In this document: positions 49,234 through 63,770 of the stretch, one piece after another
How positions within the stretch are numbered: position 1 is the stretch's first letter
How the letters are laid out: each line of letters opens with the position of its first letter
Assembly (NCBI GenBank): GCA_964291625.2
Contig: OZ220089.1
Span: forward strand, 1,056,001-1,120,000
Direction of reading: 5' to 3'
Length of the DNA stretch: 64,000 bases
DNA from: Candidatus Latescibacterota bacterium
GTDB taxonomy: Bacteria > Latescibacterota > UBA2968 > UBA8231
Program-made: the position numbers and the translations under genes
The notes under the pieces: generated by a model
Database searches by the model: none
What the model was told of the DNA's origin: nothing
Seen by the model: only the letters and a program-made list of their open reading frames with translations

Positions 49234-50481
49234 GTGACTACCGCGTCCACCTCGGACGCCGGACTCGCCCTCCTCGGCGGCCCCCCCCTCCGATCCGATC
49301 CGTTCCCGTCCTGGCCCGTCTTCGGCGCCGAGGACGAGGCCGCAGTCCTCGAGGTCCTGCGTTCGGGGAGCTGGTTCCTCGGCGATCGCGTCGCCGAGAT
49401 CGAGCGCCGGTTCCCCCAATTCCATCATGCCCGGCACGGAATCGCCGTCAGCAGCGGCACGGCGGCCCTGCAGGTGGCCCTGGAGGCCGCCGGTGTCCGC
49501 CTCGGGGACGAGGTGATCGTCCCCTCCTACACCTTCGTCGCCACCGCCGCCTCCGTCGCCCTCGTGGGGGCGGTGCCCGTCTTCGTCGATGTCGATCCCG
49601 CTACCTACTGCATCGATCCGGCCTCCGTCGAAGCCGCCGTCACGGAGCGTACCCGCGCCGTCGTCGCCGTCCACTTCGCCGGCCAGCCGGCCGACCTCGA
49701 CGCCCTCGGCCGGCTCTGCCGGTCCCGCGGCATCCTTCTGATCGAGGATGCCGCGCAGGCGCACTGCGCCGAGTGGCGCGACCGCCGCGTCGGTGCCATC
49801 GGCGATCTCGGCACCTTCAGCTTCCAGGCCAGCAAGAATCTGAACTCCGGCGAGGGCGGCTTCATCCTCAGCGACGACGACAAGCTGGCCGAGGCCGCCT
49901 GGTCGATCCACAACTGCGGGCGCACCCGCACCGGCGCCTGGTACGAGCATGCCCTCGTGGGCGGCAACTACCGCATGTCCGAGTTCCAGGCGGCGCTGCT
50001 CCTCAGCCAGATGCGCAACCTCGAGGACCAGAGCCGGCTGCGCTCCCGCAACGCGAGCCTGCTGTCCCAACGGCTGTCCGAGATCGAGGGGATCCGCCCC
50101 CTCGAGGTGGACGCGCGCGTCAGCCGTCACGCCTACCACTTGTTCGTCTTCCGTTACGATCCGGCCGCCTTCGCCGGCGTGTCCAGGGAGCGCTTCCTGG
50201 AAGCCCTGAGCGCCGAGGGCATCCCCTGCGCCTCCGGGTACAGGCCTCTCTACCGCGAGCCCGCCTTCCAGGCCCGCTTCCGCGACTACCCCCTGGACTC
50301 CCCCGCCTTCGGCGGACGCCCGGACTACGCCACCGTCCACCACCCCGTCACGGAGCGCATCTGCGCCGGGGAAGCGGTCTGGCTCACCCAGAACCTGCTC
50401 CTCGGCAGCGAAGAGGACACGGCGGGCATCGCCGAGGCGGTCGCCAAGGTCCAGAAGCACGCCCACCGGTTGGCGGACTAG
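49234..50481 (+). CDS. DegT/DnrJ/EryC1/StrS PLP-dependent aminotransferase (AHBA-synthase-like)
   Basis: SGTAAL, VPSYTFVATA, IEDAAQAH, FSFQASKNLNSGEGG, NYRMSEFQAA. Confidence 0.92.
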   Translation: MTTASTSDAGLALLGGPPLRSDPFPSWPVFGAEDEAAVLEVLRSGSWFLGDRVAEIERRFPQFHHARHGIAVSSGTAALQVALEAAGVRLGDEVIVPSYTFVATAASVALVGAVPVFVDVDPATYCIDPASVEAAVTERTRAVVAVHFAGQPADLDALGRLCRSRGILLIEDAAQAHCAEWRDRRVGAIGDLGTFSFQASKNLNSGEGGFILSDDDKLAEAAWSIHNCGRTRTGAWYEHALVGGNYRMSEFQAALLLSQMRNLEDQSRLRSRNASLLSQRLSEIEGIRPLEVDARVSRHAYHLFVFRYDPAAFAGVSRERFLEALSAEGIPCASGYRPLYREPAFQARFRDYPLDSPAFGGRPDYATVHHPVTERICAGEAVWLTQNLLLGSEEDTAGIAEAVAKVQKHAHRLAD

Positions 50482-50497
50482 GCGGAGCTCTCCACGG

Positions 50498-50803
50498 CTA
50501 TCGAGTCAGCCGCTCGATCTCGTGCTGCACCCGTTCCTGACGGATCTGGTCGATCACCTCCTGAAAGGACTTCGCCGTACCGCTCACGACGAGCCGCTCG
50601 ATGGCGTGGACCTCATCCTCGGTGTACCACCCCGAGTTCCTGACGCGCGCCACATAGGCGAGTCGGTCCTCGATGGGGAGACGGGCGATGGCTCCGAGCC
50701 TCTCGAACAGCTTGTACGCCGCCTCGCTCTCGAGACAGCGTTCGACGACGGCGGCGAGCCTCTCTTCACGGCCGGGTGTCTGCGGGGAATCGATCGTTTC
50801 CAC
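50498..50803 (-). CDS. Hypothetical protein (about 101 aa, helical)
   Basis: GTG 50803 preceded by AAAGGA RBS; typical codon usage; no recognisable motif. Confidence 0.6.
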   Translation of the reverse strand: METIDSPQTPGREERLAAVVERCLESEAAYKLFERLGAIARLPIEDRLAYVARVRNSGWYTEDEVHAIERLVVSGTAKSFQEVIDQIRQERVQHEIERLTR

Positions 50804-51088
50804 GGTCGTCCTTTCTCGACAGGGGAGTCCGAAGGGACTGGCGCCAAGCTCCCATGCAATGCGCGGACCCAACCGCGGAGGAAACCGTGGGGAACTGCCG
50901 CAACTACCATGTTTTACTGACCCTTGGAGACCGCTTCCCCCGAGAGGACGGCGGGACCCGAGGCGGCCCGGATGGGAACAATCCAGCCCCTCGAGGGGAA
51001 GGATCTTCCCCCTCCAGGGGCCGGCTGTCCGGATCGCTGGCACCCCGCTATCTTCTGTCACCCGAGCCTGGACCTGGAGCGATGAAGG

Positions 51089-51379
51089 ATGATCGACAAG
51101 GAACTGCTGGAGATCCTCGCCTGTCCCGAGACGAAGGAGCCGATCCACGTGGCCGATCAGGCCCTGGTGGATGAGGTCAACCGCCGGATCGAGCGCGGCG
51201 AGCTGACCAATCGGGGAGGATCGAAGGTGGAACGGAAGATCGACGGAGGCCTGGTGCGGGAGGACCGGAGGTATCTCTATCCGATCGAGGACGAGATCCC
51301 CATCATGCTGATCGACGAGGCGATCTCCCTCGAGGGGTTCGACCCGGGCGGCGAGGACGCTTCTTCCGGGCAGCCGTGA
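51089..51379 (+). CDS. Trm112-like protein
   Basis: MIDKELLEILACPETK...YPIEDEIPIMLIDEA. Confidence 0.85.
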   Translation: MIDKELLEILACPETKEPIHVADQALVDEVNRRIERGELTNRGGSKVERKIDGGLVREDRRYLYPIEDEIPIMLIDEAISLEGFDPGGEDASSGQP

Positions 51380-51418
51380 CGCCGCCCGTCGGGCGCTCCG
51401 CCCTTTCTGCCGATGGAC

Positions 51419-51454
51419 GAAAGGCGCCTGCAGGTGATCTGCAGACGCCTTTTC
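51419..51454. terminator. Bidirectional intrinsic terminator
   Basis: GAAAGGCGcCTGCAG-GTGAT-CTGCAGaCGCCTTTTC hairpin between the convergent Trm112-like gene and tRNA-Leu. Confidence 0.75.
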
Positions 51455-51461
51455 TCATGAG

Positions 51462-51546
51462 TGGTGCGGAAGCGGGGACTCGAACCCCGACGCCCGAAGG
51501 CACTGCCCCCTCAAGACAGCGTGTCTACCAATTTCACCACTTCCGC
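51462..51546 (-). tRNA. tRNA-Leu(GAG)
   Basis: GCGGAAGTGGTGAAATTGGTAGACACGCTGTCTTGAGGGGGCAGTGCCTTCGGGCGTCGGGGTTCGAGTCCCCGCTTCCGCACCA: cloverleaf, long variable arm, encoded CCA; classic position after secG. Confidence 0.97.
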
Positions 51547-51550
51547 AAGC

Positions 51551-51916
51551 CTATTGTGGGAGGGCCGCATCCGACTCTTTCGGCTGATCCCCCTCCTGCG
51601 GCTGATAGGGGGTGGGAGCGACCGGCGCCGCCCCTTCCTCCGCCTGCAGCAGACGCTCGCTGGCCGTCGTCGGCAGTCCCTCGTCCTCGTCGTAGGCCAC
51701 GGCCAGGGCGAGACACAGAATCAGGAAGCTTGCGGCCAGGTAGGTCGTCGTCTTGGTGAGGAAGGTGCTCGCCGCCCGGCCCCCCAGGACGGAGGAGGAG
51801 CTCAGGCCGCCGCCCACGGATGCGGCCAGTCCGCCGCCCTTGCCGGACTGGAGCAGCACGGCGACGACCAGCATGATGCAGACGAGGATGTGGAGGATGG
51901 TCAGCAGGATGGTCAT
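51551..51916 (-). CDS. secG: Preprotein translocase subunit SecG
   Basis: VLLQSGKGGGLA, FLTKTT; located between tpiA and tRNA-Leu. Confidence 0.95.
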   Translation of the reverse strand: MTILLTILHILVCIMLVVAVLLQSGKGGGLAASVGGGLSSSSVLGGRAASTFLTKTTTYLAASFLILCLALAVAYDEDEGLPTTASERLLQAEEGAAPVAPTPYQPQEGDQPKESDAALPQ

Positions 51917-52701
51917 GGCTGCTCTGCTTCTCGGGTAGCGGCGCGAACGATGGCGGCGAAATCCTCGGCCCGGAGGGAGGCGCCGCCGATCAGGCCCCCG
52001 TCGATGTCGGCCTGGCCGAACAACTCGCCGGCGTTCTCGGGCTTGACACTGCCTCCGTAGAGGATTCGGACGGCGTCGGCGGTCTCGCCGAATCTCTCGC
52101 GCAGGCGGTCACGGATCAGAGCGTGAACGCTCTCGGCCTCCCCGGGGGTGGCGGTGCGGCCCGTGCCGATCGCCCAGACCGGCTCGTAGGCCACGGCGAC
52201 GGCGAGCACTTGCTCGGCGGTGAGCCCGTCCAGGCCCCGGTCCAACTGGCCCAGTACGGTGCTCTCGACCTGACCGGCGTCGCGCTGATCGAGGGTTTCG
52301 CCGATGCAGAGGATCGGATTGAGACCCGTTGCGAGGGCCGCCCGCGTGCGCTGGTTCACGCCCTCGTCGGTCTCGCCGAACAGCTGCCGCCGCTCGGAAT
52401 GGCCTAGTATAACCCATTGGCACGCAAGGGTCAACAGCATCCGGGGGGAGACCTCGCCGGTGTAGGCGCCGCTCTCCTCCCAGTGCGAGTTCTGGGCTCC
52501 CAGGCCGACCGCTCCGTCCTCCAGCACGGCGGCGACGGCCGCCAGGCCGGGGTAGGGCGGGCACAGGACGACGTCGACGAACCCGGTCTCCTCGCGGATC
52601 TGCGGGAGGAGCTCGCGGGCCAGGGCGGCGCCCTCCCGCGGCAGCAGGTTCATCTTCCAGTTGGCGGCGACGAGAGGCCGTCTCTGAATCGACCGCGTCA
52701 T
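51913..52701 (-). CDS. tpiA: Triosephosphate isomerase
   Basis: ATG 52701; ANWKMN, GAYTGEVS, GHSERR, AYEPVWAIGTG, LYGGSV. Confidence 0.98.
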   Translation of the reverse strand: MTRSIQRRPLVAANWKMNLLPREGAALARELLPQIREETGFVDVVLCPPYPGLAAVAAVLEDGAVGLGAQNSHWEESGAYTGEVSPRMLLTLACQWVILGHSERRQLFGETDEGVNQRTRAALATGLNPILCIGETLDQRDAGQVESTVLGQLDRGLDGLTAEQVLAVAVAYEPVWAIGTGRTATPGEAESVHALIRDRLRERFGETADAVRILYGGSVKPENAGELFGQADIDGGLIGGASLRAEDFAAIVRAATREAEQP

Positions 52702-53894
52702 CCCCCCTCGTCGAGGGCCTCGACCCCCGGCAGGACCCGGCCGCCCAGGGCTTCGAGGGAGGCCCCGCCGCCCGTGGAGATGTGGGACATGCGCTTGGCG
52801 GCGCCGGCCTTGTCCACCGCCGCGGCGGTGTCGCCGCCGCCGATGATGCTCACCGCCCCCGACTCCCAGGTGGCCTGCTCCAGGGCCTGGGCCACGGCGG
52901 TGGTGCCGGCGGCGAAGTCGTCGATCTCGAAGACGCCGAGGGGGCCGTTCCAGAGGATGGTCCCGGCCTGGCTGAGGTGGTCGATGAAGCGCTCCCGGGT
53001 CCGGGGCCCGATGTCGACGCCGGCGCGGTCGCCGGGGATGGCGTCGACGGCCACGGCCTCGTGCTCGGCCCCCGGTGCCACTCTGCGGGCGACGACGACG
53101 TCCTCGGGCAGGTGCAGCCTGTCGCCGGCCTTGGCCAGCAGGTCGGCGGCCACCGACACCGACTCCTCGTCGCACAGGGAGTCGCCGATCTCCTGCCCCC
53201 GCGCCTTCAGAAAGGTGTAGGACATGCCGCCGCCGATGAGCAGGGCATCGACCTTGCCCAGGAGGTTCTCGATCACCTCGATCTTGTCCGCCACCTTGGC
53301 GCCGCCGAGGATGGCGACGAAGGGGCGCGCCGGTTCGGAGAGGGCCTCCTGCAGGTACTGGAGCTCCTTCTTCATCAGGTAGCCGGCGACACTGTGATCC
53401 ACGTGCCGGGTGATGCCCTCCGTCGAGGCGTGGGCCCGGTGGGCGGCTCCGAAGGCATCGTTGACGTAGATGCCGCTGCCGAGGCCGGCCAGCTGCCGCG
53501 CGAAACCGCCGTCGTTGGCCTCTTCGCCGGGGTGGAAGCGGAGGTTCTCGAGGAGCAGCACGCTGCCCGGTCTGAGCTCCGAGGCCAGGGCCTCCGTCTC
53601 TTCGCCGATGCAGTCGGGCGCCAGGTGGGCGCTGGTGCCGAGATGCCGGTGCAGGTCCTGGACGATCGGCTCCAGGGAGAGCCCGGGCCGCACCTGGCCG
53701 CGGGGCCGGCCGAGGTGGGACATAAGCACCAGGGAGGCCCCCTTCTCGAGCAGTTGCCACAAGGAGGGCAGGGCGGCGCGGACCCGCCGATCGTCGATGA
53801 TCCGCCCGTCGCCGTCGAGAGGGACGTTGAAGTCCTCGCGCACCAGCACGCGCTTCCCCGCCACATCGATGTCGTCTATCGTCCGCTTGGCCAT
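52698..53894 (-). CDS. pgk: Phosphoglycerate kinase
   Basis: [46 protein letters not shown]. Confidence 0.98.
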
Positions 53895-53913
53895 GTCATA
53901 TGGCTCCTTCCGG

Positions 53914-54951
53914 TCACCCGAAGAATACGCGCGAGATGTCGTACAGCTCCTCCCCCACCCTCTTCAACTCACCGACCCCCCTCTCCAGGGGCAGGGCGAC
54001 GATCTCGTCGCCCTGAAGGGCGACCATCTTGCCCCAGTCGCCGCCTTGGACCAGGTCGATGGCGGCGATGCCGTAGCGCGTGCCGAGGACCCGGTCGAAA
54101 GCCGTGGGAGTCCCGCCGCGCTGCAGGTGCCCGAGGACGATGACGCGGGTCTCGAAGCCGGTCTCCTTCTCGATCACGTCCCCCACGAGCTGCCCCACGC
54201 CGCCCAGCTTGACATGGCCGAACTCGTCGGTGCCCCCCTCCTGCACGGTGTATTCGTCGCCGCCGAACTTCACCCCCTCGGCGACGACGACGATGCTGAA
54301 GTCCTTGCCGCGGCCGTGGCGCATCTTGATGGTGTCGACTATCTCCTGGATCGACGTGCTCTGCTCCGGGATCAGGATCAGGTCGGCGCCCCCGGCGATG
54401 CCGGCGTAGGTGGCGATCCACCCCGAGTGCCGGCCCATCACCTCGACGACCATCACCCGGTTGTGGGACTCGGCCGTCGTGTGGATGCGATCCAGGGCTT
54501 CGGTGACGATGTTGATGGCCGTGTCGAAGCCGAAGGTGTAGTCCGTGTTGGAAATGTCGTTGTCGATCGTCTTGGGCACCCCCACCACGGGGGCGCCGGC
54601 GGCGGCCAGCTTGAGGGCCACGCTGAGGGTGTCGTCGCCGCCGATGGCGATCAGGGCGTCGAGCTTCATGCGTTTCATGTTCTCGAGGACGATGTCGCCG
54701 CCGTCGGGGACCTTGTAGGGGTTGGTGCGCGAGGTCCCCAGGATCGTGCCGCCCTTGGGCAGGATGCCGGAGACCTCCTCGTGGCCCAGGGGCTCCCACA
54801 GGCACTCCAGCATGCCCTTCCAGCCCTTCTCGACCCCGCGGAACCGGTATCCGTAGTGGGAGATCCCCTTGCGGACGGCCGCCCGGATGACCGCGTTCAG
54901 TCCGGGGCAGTCGCCGCCGCCGGTGAGGATGCCGACTGTCTTGATGGTCAT
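53914..54951 (-). CDS. pfkA: 6-phosphofructokinase, probably PPi-dependent (group III)
   Basis: GGDCPGLNA, GGDDT, PKTIDND, EVMGR, LGHLQRGG. Confidence 0.93.
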   Translation of the reverse strand: MTIKTVGILTGGGDCPGLNAVIRAAVRKGISHYGYRFRGVEKGWKGMLECLWEPLGHEEVSGILPKGGTILGTSRTNPYKVPDGGDIVLENMKRMKLDALIAIGGDDTLSVALKLAAAGAPVVGVPKTIDNDISNTDYTFGFDTAINIVTEALDRIHTTAESHNRVMVVEVMGRHSGWIATYAGIAGGADLILIPEQSTSIQEIVDTIKMRHGRGKDFSIVVVAEGVKFGGDEYTVQEGGTDEFGHVKLGGVGQLVGDVIEKETGFETRVIVLGHLQRGGTPTAFDRVLGTRYGIAAIDLVQGGDWGKMVALQGDEIVALPLERGVGELKRVGEELYDISRVFFG

Positions 54952-55076
54952 CTTCCTGCCTGCGGAGGGTGGTCGACCGGCAGATCGCGGCCTGTGGGCC
55001 GGGAAGCGCGCCCCGGCATTCGGGCCGCGGACACCGCCGGGGCAAACGTCTAAAGCTAGGTTCCCCGGAGGTCAGG

Positions 55077-55841
55077 TCAACGCCGTGGCCGGCGAAAGGG
55101 GCCGGCCACGGCGATCGCCCGGACCTCGGCGCCCGGGGCGGCTTCCGCCAGTACGGCGGCGCAGGCGGACAAGGTCGAGCCCGTGGTGAGCACGTCGTCC
55201 ACCAGGCCGATGGCCCGCGGGGAGCCCGCCGCCGAAGCCGCGGGCGCGAAGGCGCCGGCCAGGTTGCCTGCCCGGTCCGCGGCCAGCAGGCGCGCCTGCT
55301 GTCGGGTCGGCCGGACCCGGCGCACCAGGTCCCCGCGGACCGGCACGCCGAGGGCCTCAGCCGCCCCCCGGGCGATCAGGTCGGCCTGGTTGAAGCCGCG
55401 CTCCCGTTGCCGCGCCGGGTGCAGGGGCACGGGTACCACCAGGTCCAGGTCGGACAAGGCGCCGGCGGTCTCCGGGGCGGTCGCCAGCAGACGGCCGAGG
55501 AGGGATCCGATCCTCCGGATCCCGCTGAACTTGAGAGCGTGGACGGCGGACTGGGCGGGACCCTCCAGATCGGTGAGCACCACCGCCCGCGAGTAGTCCA
55601 CCTCGCGCCAGCCGGCACAGTTCGGGCACTCCGGCCCGGAGGAGCCGCTCCCTTGTTGCCGCGGCGCCCCGCAGCGCGGGCACCGCGGACCGAGGGGATC
55701 CCGGAGGTCGGCGATGCAGCGGCGGCAGAGGGCCTCGCGGTCCCCCGGGGCCTGCCACGACTCGCAGGCCGGACAGTGGGGGGGATAGACGAAGTCGAGG
55801 AGGGCGGCCAGGAGGCCGCAGGTCCGGGTGCCGGGGGACAC
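55077..55841 (-). CDS. comF: ComF-family protein (zinc ribbon + PRTase)
   Basis: Four CxxC pairs, VPVPLH..R..ERGFNQ, LVDDVLTTGST; start approximate. Confidence 0.9.
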   Translation of the reverse strand: MSPGTRTCGLLAALLDFVYPPHCPACESWQAPGDREALCRRCIADLRDPLGPRCPRCGAPRQQGSGSSGPECPNCAGWREVDYSRAVVLTDLEGPAQSAVHALKFSGIRRIGSLLGRLLATAPETAGALSDLDLVVPVPLHPARQRERGFNQADLIARGAAEALGVPVRGDLVRRVRPTRQQARLLAADRAGNLAGAFAPAASAAGSPRAIGLVDDVLTTGSTLSACAAVLAEAAPGAEVRAIAVAGPFRRPRR

Positions 55842-55993
55842 GTTCGCGTCTCCTGGAGGTGACGTGAGTCGGCGGTTCCTGCCCGAGGTCAGACGGGCCT
55901 GCAAGGGCCGTGCCCGTCCCGGGGCGGGCTCGGGGGCCGTCAGCGCCCCCCGGGTCGCCCCTGTCTGGCGGGTTCGCTATACTCCGCCGCCCG

Positions 55994-57049
55994 ATGGCCC
56001 CGGAACCGCCTCCGCTGGAGAACCCAATCCACCGCTTCAGGCAACTCCCCACCGATTGCGGCAGCCTGACCCTGATCGCCGCCCCCGAGGACCGGCCGGG
56101 GGCCGACTTCGCCGGCGACGTGCGCGCCGGCCTCGGCGCCCGCCCCAAGCGGCTCCCCTGCCTCTACTTCTACGACGAGCGGGGGTCGCGGCTCTTCGAG
56201 CGCATCTGCGAGCTGCCGGAGTACTACCTGACGCGGGCGGAGCGCTCCATCCTCGAGGCCCGTGCCGACGAGCTGGCCGCCCTCCTCGCGGGACCGGTGG
56301 ACCTGGTCGACCTCGGCTCCGGCAACTCCGGCAAGACCCGCCTCGTCATCGAGGCCCTGCTGCGGTGCCAGGGGCGGCTGCGCTTCATCCCCGTCGACAT
56401 CTCCAGCTCCATGCTGCGGGAGAGCTCCCTGGCCCTGGTGGAGACCTACCCCGGCCTGGAGATCCTGGCCGTGGCCGGCGAGTACCAGGACGGCCTCGAC
56501 TACCTCGCTGCCGAGGGAGGTCCGCCGCGGCTTGTCCTGTGGCTGGGCTCCAACGTGGGCAACTTCACCCCGCCGGAGGCGGTGGGATTCCTGCGGCGGC
56601 TGGGCGGCGCCATGAGGCCCGGGGACGCGCTGCTCATCGGCATCGACCTGCGCAAGGAGCCGGCGGTCCTGGTGGCCGCCTACGACGACGCGGCCGGGGT
56701 GACGGCGCAGTTCAACCTGAACCTGCTGGCGCGCATCAACCGCGAGCTGGGAGGCCGCTTCGACCTCGACGCCTTCGCTCACGAGGCGTGCTGGAACGAG
56801 GCCGAGGGCCGCATGGAGATGCACCTGCGATCGCTGCGCGGCCAGAGCGTGGAGATCGCCGACATCGGCCTGCGGGTCTCCTTCTCCGAGGGCGAGACGA
56901 TCCACACCGAGAGCTCCTGCAAGTACTCCCTCGAAGGGATCCAGGAACTCGCGGCGGCCTCCGGCTTCGCCATCTCGAGGCAGTGGCTCGACGGCGGGAG
57001 CCGCTTCAGTCTCAGTCTGATGGTCCGCGGCGGCGCCTCGGGCCCCTGA
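55994..57049 (+). CDS. egtD: L-histidine N-alpha-methyltransferase (hercynine synthase)
   Basis: PKRLPCLYFYDERGSRLFERICELPEYYLTRAE, DLGSG..KT, LGSNVGNF, AYDDAAGVTAQFNLN, IHTESSCKY. Confidence 0.95.
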   Translation: MAPEPPPLENPIHRFRQLPTDCGSLTLIAAPEDRPGADFAGDVRAGLGARPKRLPCLYFYDERGSRLFERICELPEYYLTRAERSILEARADELAALLAGPVDLVDLGSGNSGKTRLVIEALLRCQGRLRFIPVDISSSMLRESSLALVETYPGLEILAVAGEYQDGLDYLAAEGGPPRLVLWLGSNVGNFTPPEAVGFLRRLGGAMRPGDALLIGIDLRKEPAVLVAAYDDAAGVTAQFNLNLLARINRELGGRFDLDAFAHEACWNEAEGRMEMHLRSLRGQSVEIADIGLRVSFSEGETIHTESSCKYSLEGIQELAAASGFAISRQWLDGGSRFSLSLMVRGGASGP

Positions 57050-57072
57050 GCGCGCTTCGGAGCAGGGCGTCT

Positions 57073-58569
57073 TCAGTCGGCCACGGCCAGGGAGGCCCCC
57101 GAGGCCAGCCGCAGCCGCCGCCGCACCACCTGCGAGATCGAGTCGATCCCCATGTTGAGCAGGGCCGTGAAGCCGATGAGGACCACCGCCTGGTCGAGCT
57201 TGTCCTCGGCGATGGCGCTGTCGATGAAGAACCCGAGGGTTGTGACCCCCAGGATCCCGAGGATCGCCGACTCCCGCATCATCACCTCCCAACGGTAGAA
57301 CAGGAAGGCCAGGAACTGCCCGTAGACCCGGGGCAGGACCTCCCAGGCGTAGCGGTCGAGGGCGCGGCGGGGAGCGTCGAGCCTCAGGCGCATGACGTTG
57401 GCCGAGCCGGCGCCGAGGTAGGAGAGGATCGCCCCGTTGTGCAGCAGGATCGCCACCAGGGCCGGCAGCATCGACGGCCCCCACAGCTGCAGGAAGACGT
57501 AGGCGAGGATGTACTCCGGCGTCGTCCGCCCGACGATCAGGCCGAAGTGAACGAGCCGGCGCACCGCCGCCGGGCTCACGTGGCGGCAGGCCACGCCGAG
57601 GAAGACGACGGCGAAGAGGCCGGTCGCCGCCAGCGCCACCTGGGTGAGGAGGACCGTGTTCCACAGGCCGGGCAGGACCTGGTCGCCCACCAGTCTCGAG
57701 AACCACGCCCACACCTGATCGACGGGGAAGGCGACGTCGAGAGTGCCGTCGAGGAAGCCCTCCCGGCGCATCGGCCAAGGCAGGATCTCCCAGGTGAGGA
57801 AGCGCTTGACATTGACCCAGGAGAGGTGGACCTCGGGCGACACGGCCCAGGCCGACAGGGCCGCGTAGAGCACCACCAGCCGGGGGCGGACCCAGTACCT
57901 CAGCGACGCGATGAGCAGGTAGAAGGCGTAGAGCAGGGCCGCCGCCTCGCCGTAGAGGCCCTCGCGGAAGGCGGTCTCCAGGTGGAACCCCAGGGTCGGC
58001 AGGCCGATGAAGCCGAGGACGGCGCTGGAGCGCAGGGCGCACTCCAGCCGGTAGGAGGTGTAGGCCTTCAGGTTGGGCCAGATGATCGGCAGCACCCCGT
58101 AGCAGAACCGGCTGACCCCCGTCGAGCCCGGCGGCAGGGCCTCCATGGGCCGCCGGTCGGCCTCCTGCAGGATCTCGGCGTAGACCTTGGCGAAGACGCC
58201 GGCGTAGGGGACGGCGATGGCCAGCACGCCGCAGACCGGGTTGAGCCCCACCATGGGCAGAAACAGGAAGGCCCAGAAGATCTCGTGGACGGCGCGCACG
58301 GCGGCGCAGCCGAGGCGCACGACGCGGCGCTCGAAGCAGAAGGCGAGCCCCGAGCCGAGGACCACCGCCAGGGAGAGGCCGCAGAAGGCGAAGGTGACGG
58401 TGTTGAGCAGGGGCTGCCCCAGGCCCGGCAGCGCCCCCAGGTCGGGGCGGGCGAAGCCCGAGAGCAGGCGCCCCATCTCGCCCCACGGGTCGAGGGTGAC
58501 GATCTCGATGTCGGCCAGGGCCAGGCAGGCGAGGCCCACCGCCAGGAACCACAGGCTCGCCTTCAGCAC
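57073..58569 (-). CDS. PhnE-like ABC transporter permease (two fused TM domains)
   Basis: Two repeats: RAVHEIFWA...YRLECALRSSAVLG and RTTPEYIL...YRWEVMMRESAILG. Confidence 0.9.
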   Translation of the reverse strand: MLKASLWFLAVGLACLALADIEIVTLDPWGEMGRLLSGFARPDLGALPGLGQPLLNTVTFAFCGLSLAVVLGSGLAFCFERRVVRLGCAAVRAVHEIFWAFLFLPMVGLNPVCGVLAIAVPYAGVFAKVYAEILQEADRRPMEALPPGSTGVSRFCYGVLPIIWPNLKAYTSYRLECALRSSAVLGFIGLPTLGFHLETAFREGLYGEAAALLYAFYLLIASLRYWVRPRLVVLYAALSAWAVSPEVHLSWVNVKRFLTWEILPWPMRREGFLDGTLDVAFPVDQVWAWFSRLVGDQVLPGLWNTVLLTQVALAATGLFAVVFLGVACRHVSPAAVRRLVHFGLIVGRTTPEYILAYVFLQLWGPSMLPALVAILLHNGAILSYLGAGSANVMRLRLDAPRRALDRYAWEVLPRVYGQFLAFLFYRWEVMMRESAILGILGVTTLGFFIDSAIAEDKLDQAVVLIGFTALLNMGIDSISQVVRRRLRLASGASLAVAD

Positions 58570-58579
58570 GGCGAAGGTC

Positions 58580-59311
58580 TCAGGTCGACGGCTCGGGGTT
58601 CGCCTCGCCGCGGTAGAGGGCTTCCAGCCGCCCGTCCCCGACCTCGGCGGAGCCCAGGTCGAAGGCGACCCGTCCCTCGCGCAGTCCGACGGCCCGGTCG
58701 AAGTGCCGCAGCGCCAGGTCGACGTCGTGCATGGCCACCACCGCGGTCTCGCAGCCGGCCTTGAGCAGCTCGAGGACGTCGCCCGCCTGGTGCGGATCGA
58801 CCGCCGAGACCGGCTCGTCGGCCAGGACCACGCTGCCGCCCTGGTAGAGGGCTCGCCCCACGGCGACCCGCTGCTGCTGGCCGCCGGAGAGCTGGCTCAC
58901 CGCCTCGAAGAGCTTCTCCTCCATCCCGAGGTCGCGGAAGAGGGGGCGCAACTCCTCCACCACCCGCCGCCGGGGTCTCACCAGGTCGACGAGATTGGCC
59001 AGGGTCGAGTTCCGGTCCAGGCGGCCGGCGTAGACGTTGTGGAACGCCGACAACTGCGGCACCAGGGCGTAGTCCTGGTGCACGCAGGCGCAGTCGTCCG
59101 GACGGCGGGCCTGGAGCAGCCGCAGCAGGGTCGTCTTGCCGGCGCCGCTGGGACCGATGACGACCAGCTTCTCGCCCCGCTCCACCCGCAGGTCGACGCC
59201 GCGCAGGGCCTCGGTGGCGCCGGCGCGGACGTGCTCGTCCCGCAGGTCGAACAGCGGTCCACCCGCCTCCGGAGGCCCCTCGGCCGCCGGGGCGGGCATG
59301 GAAGCCATCAC
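58580..59311 (-). CDS. PhnC-like ABC transporter ATPase
   Basis: GPSGAGKTT, LSGGQQQRV, LADEP, H-loop MHD. Confidence 0.93.
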   Translation of the reverse strand: MMASMPAPAAEGPPEAGGPLFDLRDEHVRAGATEALRGVDLRVERGEKLVVIGPSGAGKTTLLRLLQARRPDDCACVHQDYALVPQLSAFHNVYAGRLDRNSTLANLVDLVRPRRRVVEELRPLFRDLGMEEKLFEAVSQLSGGQQQRVAVGRALYQGGSVVLADEPVSAVDPHQAGDVLELLKAGCETAVVAMHDVDLALRHFDRAVGLREGRVAFDLGSAEVGDGRLEALYRGEANPEPST

Positions 59312-60201
59312 TCCTCGAGGATGCCGATGGTCCTGCCGGTCTCGAGGATCGGCGCGTACATGGTATTGTCGGCGGGGATGAACGAGGCGCGCGGGAAGGA
59401 GTCGAGCAGGGCCCGGTCCTCCATGCCGAGAAGGGCCTGGCGGACGCGGTCGGTGAAGCCCTCCCCGTAGCGGCTGTCGACGTCGCCGCGGATCGACCAG
59501 TTGTAGTCGGGGTAGGTCGGCGTGCGCCAGATGAGGCGCACCTTGGAGGTGTCCACGATCCCCGCGGCCATCTCCCTCTCCCAGACCTTGTAGTTGAGCG
59601 CTCCCGCCTGGTAGGCGCCGGACTGCACCAGGGCCAGGGTCTTGGAGTGGTCGCCGCTGAAGCCGACGCGCTCGAAGACCTCGCCCGGGGGCTTGCCGAA
59701 GTGCCGGCGGATGAAGTACTCCGGCATCAGCCGCCCGGAGGTCGATCCCTTCGAGCCGAAGGTGAAGGTCTTGCCGGCGATGCCGGCCGGGAAAGCTGCC
59801 TCGGCATCCTCGCCGCTGCAGGCGCAGGGCTTCTTCTCCCGCAGGCCGGTGCTCGCGTGGGCGATGAAGTAGGTGACGAACTCCACGTCCTCCTCACCCT
59901 GGGCGATCGCCTGCGAGCCGGGCACGCCGCGGCGCGCCTGCACGCCGGAGAGGCCTCCGAACCAGGCCAGCTGCACCTCTCCGTTCTTGAAGGCCGAGAC
60001 CGAGGCGGCGTAGGACTTGACCGGGACGTACTCCACCGGGATTCCGAGCGTCGAGCCCAGGTACACGGCGACCTTGTCGAACCGCTCCTTGAGTCTCGCC
60101 GTGTCCTGGTCGGGGATCGCCGTGAAGCGGAAGACCTCCGCGGCGCCCGCGGGAATCACGAGCGACGGGAGCAGAGCCAGAAGCAGAATCGAGCGTATCA
60201 T
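59308..60201 (-). CDS. PhnD-like substrate-binding protein of the putative selenate ABC transporter type
   Basis: ATG 60201 with signal peptide; FTAIPDQD, QLAWFGGLSGVQAR, FTFGSKGSTSGRLMP, GFSGDHSKT, YPDYNW. As recalled, these match the selenium-associated family TIGR04553. Confidence 0.85.
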   Translation of the reverse strand: MIRSILLLALLPSLVIPAGAAEVFRFTAIPDQDTARLKERFDKVAVYLGSTLGIPVEYVPVKSYAASVSAFKNGEVQLAWFGGLSGVQARRGVPGSQAIAQGEEDVEFVTYFIAHASTGLREKKPCACSGEDAEAAFPAGIAGKTFTFGSKGSTSGRLMPEYFIRRHFGKPPGEVFERVGFSGDHSKTLALVQSGAYQAGALNYKVWEREMAAGIVDTSKVRLIWRTPTYPDYNWSIRGDVDSRYGEGFTDRVRQALLGMEDRALLDSFPRASFIPADNTMYAPILETGRTIGILEE

Positions 60202-60281
60202 CGTTGGTACGGTCCTCTCTACTTTGGATGTGATGATGGACGTGATGGATGCCGCCGGGCGGGCGGCCGGAGCGGAAGGCC

Positions 60282-61336
60282 TCAGCCGAAGACCAGGTGC
60301 ACCTCCCCCTCCTGGGGCTGGACGCGACCGACGACGGCCGAGGCCGGGGCGCCGCCGTCGACGAGGGCGGCCACGGCTTCGCCGGCCTGGTCCGCCGGAA
60401 GGGCGGCCAGCAGCCCGCCGCTCGTCTGCGGATCGACGGCCAGGGCGCGCCACTCCTCCGGAAGGTCCGGCGCGAACCGGGTGGAGGCCTCGACGAGCTC
60501 GCGGTTGGCCCGGTTGACCCCGGTGGACACCCCCGCCGGTACATCTCGAGGGCCTCGTCGTACACCGGCACGGCGCCGGCGTCGATGTTCAGTGTCACCC
60601 CCGAGCCGCCGGCCATCTCGAAGGCGTGGCCCGCCAGGCCGAAGCCGGTCACGTCGGTGGCGGCGTGCACCTCGAAGCCGGCCAGGACCTCGGCGGCGGC
60701 CCGGTTCAGCGTCGTCAGCGACTCCACGCAGGCCGCCAGGGCCCCGTCCGAGACCCAGCCGCGCAGATTGCCGTTGAAGAGCACGCCGCTGCCGATCGGC
60801 TTGGTCAGCACGAGGGCGTCCCCCGGGCGCGCGCCCACGTTGCGCCAGTAGCGCTCCGGGTGCACGAGACCGGTGACGGAGAGGCCGAACTTGGGCTCCT
60901 CGTCGTCGGTCGTGTGGCCTCCGGCGAGCACGGCGCCGGCCTCCAGGACCTTCTCGCGGGCGCCGGCGACGATGCCGGCCAGCACCTCGGGGCCGAGGAC
61001 GTCCCCCGGGAAGCCCAGCAGGTTCAGGGCCGCCAGGGGGCGGCCGCCCATGGCGTAGACATCGCTCAGGGAGTTGGCCGCGGCGATCCGGCCGAAGAGC
61101 ACGGGATCGTCCACCGGCGGCGTGATGATGTCCGCCGTGAGCACGAGGGCGCGCTCGTCGTCGAGCCGGTAGACGGCCGCGTCGTCGCTCGTCTCGAACC
61201 CCACGAGGAGGTCCGGGTCGACCTGCTCCGGGAGCCCTTCCAGCAGTCTGGCGAGTCCGACCGGACTCACTTTCGCCGCTCAGCCGCAGGTCCGGGCCAG
61301 GCTCGTGAGCGTCTTGTCCTTGTCCGTCAGCGCCAT
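60282..61336 (-). CDS. selD: Selenophosphate synthetase (SelD/SenC), selenoprotein form with UGA at codon 19; 1-nt frameshift near 60530
   Basis: ATG 61336 MALTDKDKTLTSLARTCG-UGA-AAKVSP; DDAAVY, TADIITP, AANSLSDVYAMGG, GGHT, DVTGFGLAGH. The C-terminal DPQTSGGLL lies in a different frame after a G5 run at 60530-60534. Confidence 0.95.
61251..61270 (-). promoter_or_regulatory. Putative bacterial SECIS hairpin
   Basis: mRNA GUGAGUCC-GGUC-GGACUCGC starts 9 nt after the UGA at 61282-61280; the G-initiated apical loop is 17 nt from the UGA. Confidence 0.75.
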
Positions 61337-61455
61337 TCCGTCCTCTGGTTTTCCTTCGGGAAGCGCCGGAACCTACTGATCCCCGCCGGGGGAGGCAAAG
61401 CGGCTCCGCCGCGAGGCCTATCTTAGTGGGATACCGCAAATCCGGAAGGGAGACC

Positions 61456-62769
61456 ATGCCCGAACACCGAATCCTCGACATCATCACCCGGGAAGAGCTG
61501 GCCCGCTGGGTCCGGGACGCCCGGCAGCGCACCCTCGAGCTGGTCTCCGACCTCACCGACGAGCAGCTCCTCGGCCCCCAGCTGGCCATCGTCAACCCCG
61601 GCGTCTGGGAGATCGGCCACCACGCCTGGTTCCAGTCGCGCTGGGTGTTGCGCCACGCCGGCGGTCAGCCCGCCGTGCGCGACGACGAGGACGACCTCTA
61701 CGACTCGATCGCCATCGCCCACGACCGCCGCTGGGACCTGCCCCTGCCCTCCCGGGACGGGACCCTGGCCTACGTGCGCGAGGTCCTCGACCGCACCGAG
61801 GAGCTGCTGCTGGCCGCGCCCGACGACGGCGTGATCTACCACGCCCTCTACTCGGTGCTGCACGAGGACATGCACACCGAGGCCCTCACCTACACCCGCC
61901 AGACCCACGGCTGGCCGGCGCCGCGGTTGGGCGTACCGCGCTCCGATGAGGGCATCGGCGCCGGCGGCCTGGAGGGAGATGTCGAGGTCCCCGGCGGCCT
62001 CTACCGCCTCGGCTCCGAGCGCGGCGAGCCCTTCGTCTTCGACAACGAGAAGTGGGCCCATCCCGTGGAGCTGACGGCCTTCCGCATCGACCGCGCCGCC
62101 GTCTCCCAGGAGCGCTTCGCCGAGTTCGTCGACGACGGCGGCTACGCCGAGGAGCGCCTCTGGAGCGACGAGGGCTGGGCCTGGCGCACGGAGGCAGGGG
62201 CCGAGCACCCCTGCTACTGGCGCCGGGCAGACGGCGGCTGGGAGCGCCGTCACTTCGACGCCTGGCGCGGCCTCGAGCCCCACCGGCCGGTGATCCACGT
62301 GAACTGGTTCGAGGCCGACGCCTGGTGCCGCTGGGCCGGCCGCCGGCTGCCCACCGAGGCCGAGTGGGAGGCCGCCGCCGTGGGGGAGCCCGCCGATGGC
62401 GGCGGCCTCTCGGAGAGCCGCCGCCCCTGGCCCTGGGGCGGAGCGGCGCCCTCCCCGGAACGGGCCAACCTCGACTGGAGGGCCATGGGGACGGTCGACG
62501 TGGGCGGGCTCCCGGAGGGCGAAAGCCCCTGGGGCTGCCGCCAGATGATCGGCAACGTCTGGGAGTGGACGAGCACCGTCTTCGGGCCCTTCCCCGGCTT
62601 CGAGCCGGACCCCTACAAGGAGTACTCCGAGCCCTGCTTCGACACCCGCAGGGTCATGCGCGGCGGCTGCTGGACCACCCGGTCGCGCCTGATCCGAACG
62701 GGGTACCGCAACTTCCAGACCCCCGACCGGCGCGATGTCCTCACCGGCTTCCGCAGCTGCGCCGCGTGA
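61456..62769 (+). CDS. senA: Selenoneine synthase SenA (EgtB-like DinB + FGE-sulfatase domains)
   Basis: WEIGHHAWFQ and HEDMHTEA 3-His iron site, YDS.AIAHD.RW, FDNEKWAH, RLPTEAEWE, GNVWEW, GFRSC; adjacent to senB and selD. Confidence 0.9.
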   Translation: MPEHRILDIITREELARWVRDARQRTLELVSDLTDEQLLGPQLAIVNPGVWEIGHHAWFQSRWVLRHAGGQPAVRDDEDDLYDSIAIAHDRRWDLPLPSRDGTLAYVREVLDRTEELLLAAPDDGVIYHALYSVLHEDMHTEALTYTRQTHGWPAPRLGVPRSDEGIGAGGLEGDVEVPGGLYRLGSERGEPFVFDNEKWAHPVELTAFRIDRAAVSQERFAEFVDDGGYAEERLWSDEGWAWRTEAGAEHPCYWRRADGGWERRHFDAWRGLEPHRPVIHVNWFEADAWCRWAGRRLPTEAEWEAAAVGEPADGGGLSESRRPWPWGGAAPSPERANLDWRAMGTVDVGGLPEGESPWGCRQMIGNVWEWTSTVFGPFPGFEPDPYKEYSEPCFDTRRVMRGGCWTTRSRLIRTGYRNFQTPDRRDVLTGFRSCAA

Positions 62770-63770
62770 GTCCCCGGGCCTTGCGAGTCCTGATCGTCAC
62801 CCCGGCGCCCCCAAGGTCGCGCTCCGGCAACCGGGTGACGGCCCTGCGCTGGGCCCGGGTCCTGCGCGGCCTCGGGCACGAGGCCCACATCGCCACCGCC
62901 TTCGAGCGCCAGCGCTGCGACCTGATGGTGGCCCTGCACGCGCGGCGCAGCCGCGACTCCATCCTGCGCTTCCGCCGGCGGCGGCCCGGGCGGCCGCTGG
63001 TCCTGGCCCTGACCGGCACCGATCTCTACGGCGACATCCGCACCGACGCCGGGGCCCGCGACAGCCTCGAGCGGGCCGACCGACTGATCGTGCTGCAGGA
63101 GGCCGGCGCGGCGGAACTCCCGGAGCGGCTGCGGTCCCGGGCGCGGGTCATCGTCCAGTCCCTGCGGGCTCCGCGGCGGGCTTCCCGGCCGGTGAGCGGC
63201 GCCTTCCAGGTCTGCGTCCTCGGTCACCTGCGGTCGGTGAAGGACCCGCTGAGGACGGCGGCGGCCTCGCGGCGGCTGCCGCCGGAGTCGAGGCTCCGCG
63301 TCGTCCAGGCCGGCGGCGCCCTGGAGGAGCGGGAAGCCCTCCGCGCCCGGCGCGAGGAGGACCGCAACGAGCGGTATCGCTGGGTGGGAGAGCTGCCCCG
63401 GTGGCAGGCCTTGCGGCTGCTGGGGCGCAGCCACCTGCTCGCCCTGACCTCGCGCATGGAGGGAGGGGCCAACGTCGTCTGCGAGGCCCTGGCCCTCGGG
63501 GTGCCCGTGGTCTCCTCGAGGATCTCCGGCTCCATCGGCCTGCTGGGCTCCGCCTATCCCGGCTACTTCCCCGTGGGCGACACCGGGGCCCTGGCCGCCC
63601 TGCTGTCCCGCGCCGAGACCGACGCCGCCTTCTACGAGCGGCTGCGGCAGGCCTGCCGCGAGCGCGCCCCGCTCGTCGATCCCGAGCGCGAGAGCGAGGC
63701 CTGGAGCGGCCTGCTGGCGGAGCTGAGCGGCGGGGACGGGGCCGCCCGAGGCGAGCCTTGCCGGCCCTGA
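62766..63770 (+). CDS. senB: Selenosugar synthase SenB (TIGR04348-type GT-B glycosyltransferase)
   Basis: GTG 62766 overlaps senA stop; IVTPA...SGNRVTALRW, ALHARRS, LTGTDLY, GHLRSVKDP, SRMEGGANV, GLLG..YPGYF. Confidence 0.92.
   Translation: MSPRALRVLIVTPAPPRSRSGNRVTALRWARVLRGLGHEAHIATAFERQRCDLMVALHARRSRDSILRFRRRRPGRPLVLALTGTDLYGDIRTDAGARDSLERADRLIVLQEAGAAELPERLRSRARVIVQSLRAPRRASRPVSGAFQVCVLGHLRSVKDPLRTAAASRRLPPESRLRVVQAGGALEEREALRARREEDRNERYRWVGELPRWQALRLLGRSHLLALTSRMEGGANVVCEALALGVPVVSSRISGSIGLLGSAYPGYFPVGDTGALAALLSRAETDAAFYERLRQACRERAPLVDPERESEAWSGLLAELSGGDGAARGEPCRP

Follow-up and report, generated by a model that had tools for sequence, protein, structure and literature searches.

A 64,000-nucleotide stretch of contig OZ220089.1 (assembly GCA_964291625.2; this whole stretch is called the window) carries at positions 55994..63770 seven genes that, judged from their sequences, very probably form a selenoneine (sen) cluster with shared genes for selenium and hercynine supply gathered around it, an ATP-binding cassette (ABC) importer included. 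Profile matches to NCBIfam and Pfam confirmed all seven genes and agreed with the content, order and strands that a first-pass annotation had given for senAB, selD, the importer and egtD. NCBIfam E-values ranged from 1e-59 to 1e-150 for six genes and reached 2e-46 for the ATPase, far past chance. The features are as follows, with profile scores given against family cut-offs.

Genes and features of the block

55994..57049 (+): egtD, histidine N-alpha-trimethyltransferase (TIGR03438, 361.7 vs 290.9; PF10017)
57073..58569 (-): ABC permease of two fused PhnE-like halves (TIGR01097, 201.5 vs 216.7, in two stretches)
58580..59311 (-): PhnC-like ABC ATPase (PF00005; TIGR02315, 158.4 vs 266.1, under the cut-off)
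59308..60201 (-): substrate-binding protein of the 'putative selenate' family (TIGR04553, 363 vs 250)
60282..61336 (-): selD/senC, predicted selenocysteine-containing selenophosphate synthetase (TIGR00476, 324.5 vs 125; CGU..K motif)
61253..61268 (-): hairpin like a selenocysteine insertion sequence (SECIS), with a 6-pair stem and GGUC loop, 15-30 bases from the UGA
61370..61398 (-): sigma70-like promoter candidate for selD and the importer, TTGCCT-17-TAGGTT, a pattern conserved among relatives
61419..61424 (+): -10-like hexamer TATCTT, 37 bases before senA; weak, no consensus -35 seen
61456..62769 (+): senA, non-heme-iron selenoxide synthase (NF041186, 500.6 vs 420; EgtB model, 328 vs 360)
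62766..63770 (+): senB, selenosugar synthase (TIGR04348, 401.5 vs 300)

The senA and senB genes overlap in GTGA, and the start of the ATPase gene overlaps the stop of the binding-protein gene. The egtD gene and the importer operon are convergent, with 23 bases between the egtD and permease stops. No terminator was seen between these two genes, and the terminator scan of the window returned a single terminator-like site, which is the level of chance (1 vs 1.5). An Rfam scan of the window gave no match at gathering score. Guanine-plus-cytosine content was 70-76% in the locus and 67-75% in the rest of the window, with no island. The closest records were from Candidatus Latescibacterota or Gemmatimonadaceae, in line with the host of the Fibrobacterota-Chlorobiota-Bacteroidota (FCB) group proposed at first pass, to which Latescibacterota belong. 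The locus was also matched in sponge metagenomes from two studies and in one marine metagenome, and we infer that the host is a sponge-associated bacterium of the Latescibacterota; runs with only small shares of matches were left out of this habitat assignment.

A shared divergent control region had been proposed between selD and senA. Its promoter-like elements were conserved, and a shared operator was not found in the intergenic region. Toward selD, TTGCCT-17-TAGGTT occurred in 8 of 12 intergenic regions compared to 0.76 expected from shuffles, for a pattern chosen after inspection and among kin that are not independent. Toward senA, 11 of these regions had a TAnnnT hexamer 28-59 bases ahead of the point where the alignment of the downstream gene begins; in the twelfth the distance was 78 bases. 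The strict sigma70 consensus scan returned 0 promoter-like sites and missed TTGCCT-17-TAGGTT. These conserved elements support a divergent promoter region at 61337-61455, with two likely divergent transcripts, selD-binding protein-ATPase-permease and senA-senB, and separate transcription of egtD. Pieces of contigs from one metatranscriptome run matched each of the seven genes. Assembled RNA-library contigs do not by themselves demonstrate transcription, and we did not use them as evidence of it.

selD as a predicted selenoprotein gene

From its start at 61336, selD has an in-frame UGA at codon 19 (61280-61282) in the context CG-UGA-AAK. This UGA was present at codon 19 in 12 of 12 loci examined, and 36 of 37 selD matches from other genomes had one TGA. 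The hairpin after the UGA folded with a z of -2.45. Across 11 distinct sequences 66 of 66 cells were paired, with 2 pairs changed on both sides, compared to 14-47% paired in slid controls; since the sequences are related, the pairing count is not a probability. A selA-selB-tRNA(Sec) block lies elsewhere in the genome (G000:C1 3,423,100-3,427,300). The catalytic-site UGA, the downstream SECIS-like element and the presence of selA, selB and selC are those of a selenocysteine (Sec)-type SelD (TIGR00476), as is the U-x-x-K active site, and they suggest that the UGA is read through as Sec. This SelD differs from the usual type in that it doubles as SenC. Among bacterial selenoproteins, SelD is one of the most widely distributed (PMC9312934).

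The assembled selD has a one-base frameshift in a run of five C at 60530-60534; neither this nor the in-frame UGA had been noted at first pass. The one-base insertion that restores the frame was found in 3 of 4 public runs, the fourth having no cover there, and the extra base stood at full depth (11.4/11.4) in the DNA run with the best cover. The reading frame stays open as far as a stop at codon 351-352 in 9 of 11 related selD loci; of the remaining two, one was cut by a contig end and one had frameshifts of its own. Since read contigs restore the extra base, the frameshift is an assembly error and the gene is intact, with 351 amino acids as in relatives. It is also the only selD in the genome, the second match being a 93-bit paralogue under the cut-off. 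As the sole selenophosphate synthetase it must also feed SelA, so the block is not the self-contained module that the first-pass annotation had described.

Several further observations concern selenoproteins in this host. Because the importer operon is headed by a Sec-dependent selD, selenium starvation would arrest selD translation at codon 19, before the ribosome reaches the uptake genes, an effect that may be polar or regulatory. Close to its 3' end the host selA shows a single-base slip resembling another homopolymer assembly error, and in the relative G020 (L046) selD, senA and senB are all frameshifted in the assembly, through error or decay. A short Rdx/SelW-like open reading frame (ORF; CSSU) adjoins the selA-selB-tRNA(Sec) block. 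A crude genome scan gave 8 matches, two of them further UGA-plus-hairpin candidates with redox motifs. An AhpC/TSA-like ORF at G000:C1 ~4,518,900-4,519,350 (+), with an in-frame UGA in UxxC and a downstream hairpin, is a candidate selenoprotein. The sen loci with Caldithrix and Poribacteria titles (L100, L109, L112) carry selD genes of 68-69% identity in which the AKTCG-UGA-AAKVS motif recurs, a hint that a selenium module has moved among marine lineages.

SenA, SenB and EgtD

SenA was assigned over EgtB by its profile scores (500.6 vs 420 for NF041186; 328 vs 360 for TIGR03440), as the first-pass annotation had supposed, and the SenB, SelD, EgtD and TIGR04553 assignments likewise exceeded their cut-offs. 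At 16 of the 17 positions of the composite motif xNEH--HRHxHYYN(F/Y)(F/Y)R (PMC11030361) the protein equals Variovorax SenA (PDB 8K5I, 8RYZ); the seventeenth, at which Gln stands in place of Phe/Tyr, is taken up below. It keeps the iron triad H55/H136/H140, catalytic Y387, the sugar-side residues N47/E52/H89/R92 and the set Y390/N419/F420, which selects hercynine and C2 attack and turns OvsA into SenA. N63, E68 and R120 of Variovorax SenA, which matter for selenosugar binding by mutation (PMC11237966), have conserved equivalents here. A type I or II EgtB was rejected on both the sub-cut-off score and the presence of H89, N47 and E52 instead of the Arg87 equivalent and the thiol-binding S/D or S/H pair. 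Matches to the SenA model below its cut-off in G005, G009 and G022 have the EgtB-II-type motif and were rejected as SenA.

In SenB, N22, T25, H58, R61, T83, T85, D86, R156, V158, K159, E232 and E240 match residues tested in the Variovorax enzyme. N20, T23, E231 and K158 correspond to N22, T25, E232 and K159, and the selenophosphate pocket to H58, R61, T83, T85 and R156. Every residue named in the available text of PMC10891094 is kept except H235, which is Asn here and in 21 of 23 loci; the EGGAHV motif accordingly reads EGGANV. With the exception of N/H at 236, the key residues were kept in all 23 loci checked.

EgtD exceeded the TIGR03438 cut-off. Its gene gave one profile match in the genome, and egtD is likewise single-copy wherever it occurs among the 41 genomes (21 of them). 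Four near-complete sen genomes (G017, G019, G023, G030) carry it at a large distance from senAB, and in G009 and G022 it adjoins an EgtB-II-type gene without senB. A second enzyme of the EgtB class, carrying the N/F pair for hercynine (409.1 vs 360), is encoded 2.2 Mb from the block. With no further egtD in the genome to supply this hercynine-type EgtB, EgtD probably serves both this enzyme and SenA, and the term 'dedicated' egtD used at first pass does not apply. The second gene, a non-heme-iron sulfoxide synthase (NHISS; L148:6964-8331, G000:C1 ~3,357,000-3,358,330), shares just 37-39% identity with the EgtB-II-type genes in relatives, and its own motif (S-N-H, Gln for one Arg, N-F-W) differs from that of EgtB-II. 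Neither egtC nor egtD was seen beside it, and similar-scoring second NHISS genes are present in G002, G006 and G011; its sequence is possibly that of an uncharacterised subfamily.

Conservation of the layout and co-occurrence

The linkage of importer and senAB was borne out by a neighbourhood survey of relatives. In 7 of 14 senB loci senAB was divergent from selD-binding protein-ATPase-permease; one of the 7 is truncated within the permease and one is frameshifted, and 4 have egtD adjoining as in the window. A further 2 loci break off within selD or the binding-protein gene, where the contig ends, and in the other 5 senA, selD or the importer is not in place. Across 41 genomes, both sen and importer were present in 14 (two of these counted as sen from a senA cut by the contig end), sen only in 3, importer only in 1 and neither in 23. 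The selenocysteine genes were near universal (selD in 38, selA in 37). The importer was thus present in 14 of 17 sen-bearing relatives compared to 1 of 21 selA-bearing genomes without sen. In this class the importer follows sen, not the selenocysteine trait, and for this reason it was probably kept for selenoneine, which would serve as a bulk selenium sink.

Importer loci were counted over the best 80 of 329 in genome contigs, many with short flanks. There senA and/or senB lay in the flank of 22, of which 16 were Latescibacterota or Gemmatimonad-, 2 Poribacteria, 1 Caldithrix, 1 Cytophagia and 2 others; in the Poribacteria, Caldithrix and Cytophagia loci the sen genes stood in other gene orders. 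Two of the 80 had selD or selAB-selD, and three had a LysR gene close to a selenium-linked model. ORF clustering of the 80 loci gave no general partner beyond the ATPase, the permease, sen genes, selD and egtD. Of three plasmid importer loci, one adjoins fdnG-selAB, and the other two are without selenium genes. In three loci that lack sen (L104, L114, L120) the LysR gene near the selenium-metabolism model directly precedes the importer and is divergent from it; in L104 it scored 241.9 vs a cut-off of 250. In 6 of the 80 loci (L056:19106-20623; similar in L058, L062, L079, L109 and L112) a fused OsmF/ProW-like betaine-type ABC binding protein-permease adjoins egtD. This protein, which we take to resemble the ergothioneine importers (EgtU), might take up hercynine, ergothioneine or selenoneine.

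On the other side of egtD, window positions 49234-55904 hold housekeeping genes, named from their translations: a DegT-type aminotransferase, a Trm112-like ORF, tRNA-Leu, secG, tpiA, pgk, pfkA and a comF-like gene (the last by hidden Markov model, under the cut-off). The order pgk-pfkA-comF-egtD is kept in 3 same-genus loci and comF-egtD in a fourth.

The importer and its ligand

The permease is internally duplicated, its halves aligning at 30% over 198 amino acids, with ~8 hydrophobic segments in a rough scan. By sequence and fold, the nearest solved proteins to the binding protein were PhnD1 of Synechococcus and Prochlorococcus (43% and 38% identity; PDB 7S6G, 5LQ5, 5LQ8), whose ligand residues and ligands (phosphite, phosphate, methylphosphonate) are described in PMC10284923 and PMC5700983. 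The pocket residues D31, Y64, S153, T154, S155, H185, N203, D232 and Y233 equal those of PhnD1 at 9 of 9 positions and were identical in 80 of 83 importer loci. This comparison was made by sequence alignment to the crystallised proteins and not from the AlphaFold model (8 sequences), which had a pLDDT of 72.8 and <50 in the pocket region 125-158. A protein from a metagenome, with 3 differences from the 5LQ5 chain over 270 aligned positions, scored 302.5 with TIGR04553, and a close 7S6G relative scored 332.2 (cut-off 250). Because such near-identical PhnD1 proxies pass its cut-off, the 'putative selenate' family is, on these scores, one that already includes solved structures.

The PhnD1 pocket is closed by a Tyr cap, and its Asp contact needs a protonated ligand oxygen (PMC5700983). 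PhnD1 binds phosphite with sub-micromolar to low micromolar affinity and phosphate at least tenfold more weakly (PMC10284923). Our analysis of the pocket suggests that it requires three trigonal oxygens, a small fourth position under the Tyr cap and, through the Asp contact, a protonated ligand. Hydrogen selenite is pyramidal and protonated; selenate is tetrahedral and unprotonated at sea-water pH. Since the pocket equals that of phosphite-binding PhnD1, which hydrogen selenite would fit and selenate would not, selenite is favoured over selenate, and the importer most likely brings in a small pyramidal selenium oxyanion, probably hydrogen selenite. On the sequence comparison, we consider it somewhat more probable than an even chance that the importer carries selenite.

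The genome has its own pstSCAB (with a TIGR02136-type PstS) and a Na/Pi cotransporter, and no phnJ match was found in this 95% complete genome, so the importer is not needed for phosphate or for C-P lyase substrates. Genome profile searches did not find a TIGR00975-type PstS, a PitA-type PHO4 or selU. The C-P lyase-linked PhnD (TIGR03431) was rejected as an identity for the binding protein (102.4 vs 261.1; Y233 cap present; no phnJ match). At ~121-135 (window 59779-59811) the binding protein has an 11-residue surface-loop insertion with a CxC (PCACS), confined to close kin (16 of 120 homologues), which could be a disulfide or a selenium/thiol-reactive loop.

Weighing of alternatives

A number of observations count against the cluster and its importer as we read them. 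The SenA here reads VNEH--HRHMHYYNFQR, which departs from the strict published motif through Gln421 at the second F/Y position, and its best PDB scores were with OvsA-YNF (327.7 bits) and OvsA (317.4 bits; PDB 8U41, 8UX5), above Variovorax SenA (257.1 bits) and EgtB-I (256.3 bits). Three near-complete sen genomes (G011, G019, G030) are without the importer, and the 41 genomes are kin and some are incomplete, so that P values for co-occurrence overstate. Within the short flanks noted above, 58 of the 80 importer loci had no senA or senB and 53 had none of the selenium genes tested. The 'selenate' name of TIGR04553, a hypothetical equivalog, was given by gene neighbourhood, and the measured ligands of proteins of this type are phosphite, phosphate and methylphosphonate; the first-pass term 'selenium-type importer' therefore goes beyond the ligand data, which cover phosphorus oxyanions only. 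Finally, selD, senA and senB were absent from the flanks (<=4 kb per side, many far shorter) of all 118 PhnD1-like metagenome loci, which argues against extending selenite to PhnD1; one of these loci had selA and selB.

For SenA, the hercynine-selecting Y/N/F of OvsA-YNF (PMC11030361) is present, and an OvsA identity was rejected because Y390/N419/F420 stand in place of the histidine-binding M/Q/A, despite an overall score exceeding that of Variovorax SenA. Position 421 corresponds to Variovorax SenA Phe397 and EgtB Asp416, a specificity site at which Phe or Tyr is stated to occur 'in all SenA proteins' (bioRxiv 10.1101/2022.04.13.486033). Among the best 120 of 7,992 SenA homologues it was Gln in 44, Met in 4, Asn in 1 and Phe/Tyr in 71, and the Gln/Met proteins formed one clade of 64 tips (FastTree support 0.936) in a tree rooted on the genome's EgtB, from which frameshifted or cut SenA loci were left out. 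This clade might use another donor, a different selenosugar or a thiol, and make a product other than selenoneine, as a single clade holding 48 of the nearest 120 homologues with a change at a named specificity site would allow. Against this, SenA agrees with the Variovorax enzyme at the other 16 motif positions, its gene overlaps a senB of the usual kind, and a different sugar would lead to the same product since the sugar is lost on elimination. The genome also has no OvsM-like methyltransferase over the cut-off (TIGR04345 as proxy, best 33.6 vs 170 bits). We regard a change of donor as quite improbable; the residues suggest an enzyme outside the strict motif class that works like SenA. That selD is a pseudogene and the cluster dead in this strain, as the in-frame UGA and the frameshift of the assembled sequence might suggest, is hardly conceivable. 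UGA19 is conserved with a covarying hairpin, 36 of 37 selD matches of other genomes also have one TGA, and short-read contigs restore the frame; we rejected this reading and regard it as already refuted.

For the importer, the identity of its pocket to that of PhnD1, and the passing of the TIGR04553 cut-off by PhnD1 proxies, would also suit a carrier of phosphate, phosphite or methylphosphonate that came to lie near selD and sen through lineage history or through leakage of selenite. The 118 PhnD1-like loci, the majority of importer loci without a selenium neighbour, and several importer-bearing relatives without a PstS-like match point the same way. On the other side stand the host's own pstSCAB and missing phnJ, and the repeated adjacency of the importer to selD, selAB, sen and selenium-linked-like LysR genes in unrelated phyla. 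No recurrent phosphorus-catabolic neighbour appeared in the top clusters of the 80 loci (by eye, few scanned; ptxD and phnY/phnZ not searched). We consider a phosphorus carrier rather unlikely. Transport of selenate, which the NCBIfam name and its use in two papers would suggest, appears improbable: the Tyr-capped pocket has an Asp needing a protonated oxygen (PMC5700983), and PhnD1 has at most a tenth of its phosphite affinity for phosphate, which like selenate is tetrahedral. Selenite thus remains the ligand that we favour.

Relation to described systems

The locus has the composition by which sen clusters were defined (Kayrouz 2022), a TIGR04348 gene with egtB and selD homologues within 5 kb of senB; the selD start is 1.4 kb from senB. 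It shares the senA-senB-senC families within 5 kb with the clusters of Variovorax paradoxus and Amycolatopsis palatopharyngis. It differs from them in that selD is divergent from senAB and heads an importer operon, selD is a predicted selenoprotein gene and the genome's only selD, SenA has Gln421, and the host is of Latescibacterota type and sponge-associated. The first-pass annotation had regarded the linked importer and egtD as new, and both are in print (bioRxiv 10.1101/2022.04.13.486033; PMC13674229). A putative selenate transporter was reported near 'many' of 827 sen clusters and egtD in 'a small subset' (bioRxiv 10.1101/2022.04.13.486033), so that their co-location in subsets is a further likeness. 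Among all NHISS genes, the transporter was co-encoded with 3.1%, SenB with 8.1% and EgtD with 69.9% (PMC13674229, a paper of 2026, Table 1). The locus is therefore a member of the sen clusters, a largely described system, with a gene layout typical of its lineage and a minor variation in the SenA pocket.

PhnD1 of picocyanobacteria is the nearest described relative of the importer in pocket, sequence and fold. It differs in that PhnD1-like loci showed no selD or sen neighbours in the short flanks noted above, and its authors read it as a phosphate importer (PMC10284923, PMC5700983); 'selenium' is absent from the main texts of both papers. No dedicated selenium transporter is known according to PMC9312934 and PMC11097638. 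Our literature search, mostly without subscription papers and some supplements, found no paper testing selenite on the TIGR04553 family. Among the matches listed (20 of 276 and 20 of 63) and in the text of a paper on sponge Latescibacterota, nothing linked the Latescibacterota lineage with selenoneine.

Proposed pathway and implications

In the pathway that we propose, the importer would bring in hydrogen selenite, most likely, and thiol/thioredoxin chemistry outside the block would reduce it to selenide, as established knowledge suggests. Because no selenite-reducing gene was found within the block, it is incomplete from uptake to product, contrary to the first-pass description. Sec-containing SelD, if its UGA is read through, would make selenophosphate, the established function of its family. 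Selenophosphate would be split between SelA, for selenoproteins including SelD itself, and SenB, which would make a 1-selenosugar from a UDP-sugar as established for Variovorax SenB, whose key residues are conserved here. EgtD would supply hercynine. SenA would join the selenosugar to hercynine C2, with elimination from the selenoxide yielding selenoneine, as established for Variovorax SenA.

The cluster mainly extends the described selenoneine pathway to an uncultured, sponge-associated lineage, and its Gln421 clade shows that motif-based SenA counts miss a lineage. The selenite hypothesis concerns the importer family, beyond this single locus. Picocyanobacteria bind phosphite tightly but cannot use it (PMC10284923). 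It is possible, though we hold it only tentatively, that TIGR04553 importers are dedicated selenite importers, that phosphite binding by PhnD1 reflects mimicry of selenite, and that sponge Latescibacterota concentrate selenium via the Gln-pocket SenA. If this is true, TIGR04553 is the high-affinity selenium uptake system said to be unidentified (PMC9312934, PMC11097638), and the 'phosphite-binding' crystal structures of PhnD1 are already structures of a selenite-importer family. Sponge symbionts would then be candidates for concentrating selenium from sea water, and selenoneine in sponges could come from them. Tighter binding of selenite than of phosphite would mean a first dedicated bacterial selenium importer and would re-open the reading of PhnD1 in marine cyanobacteria.

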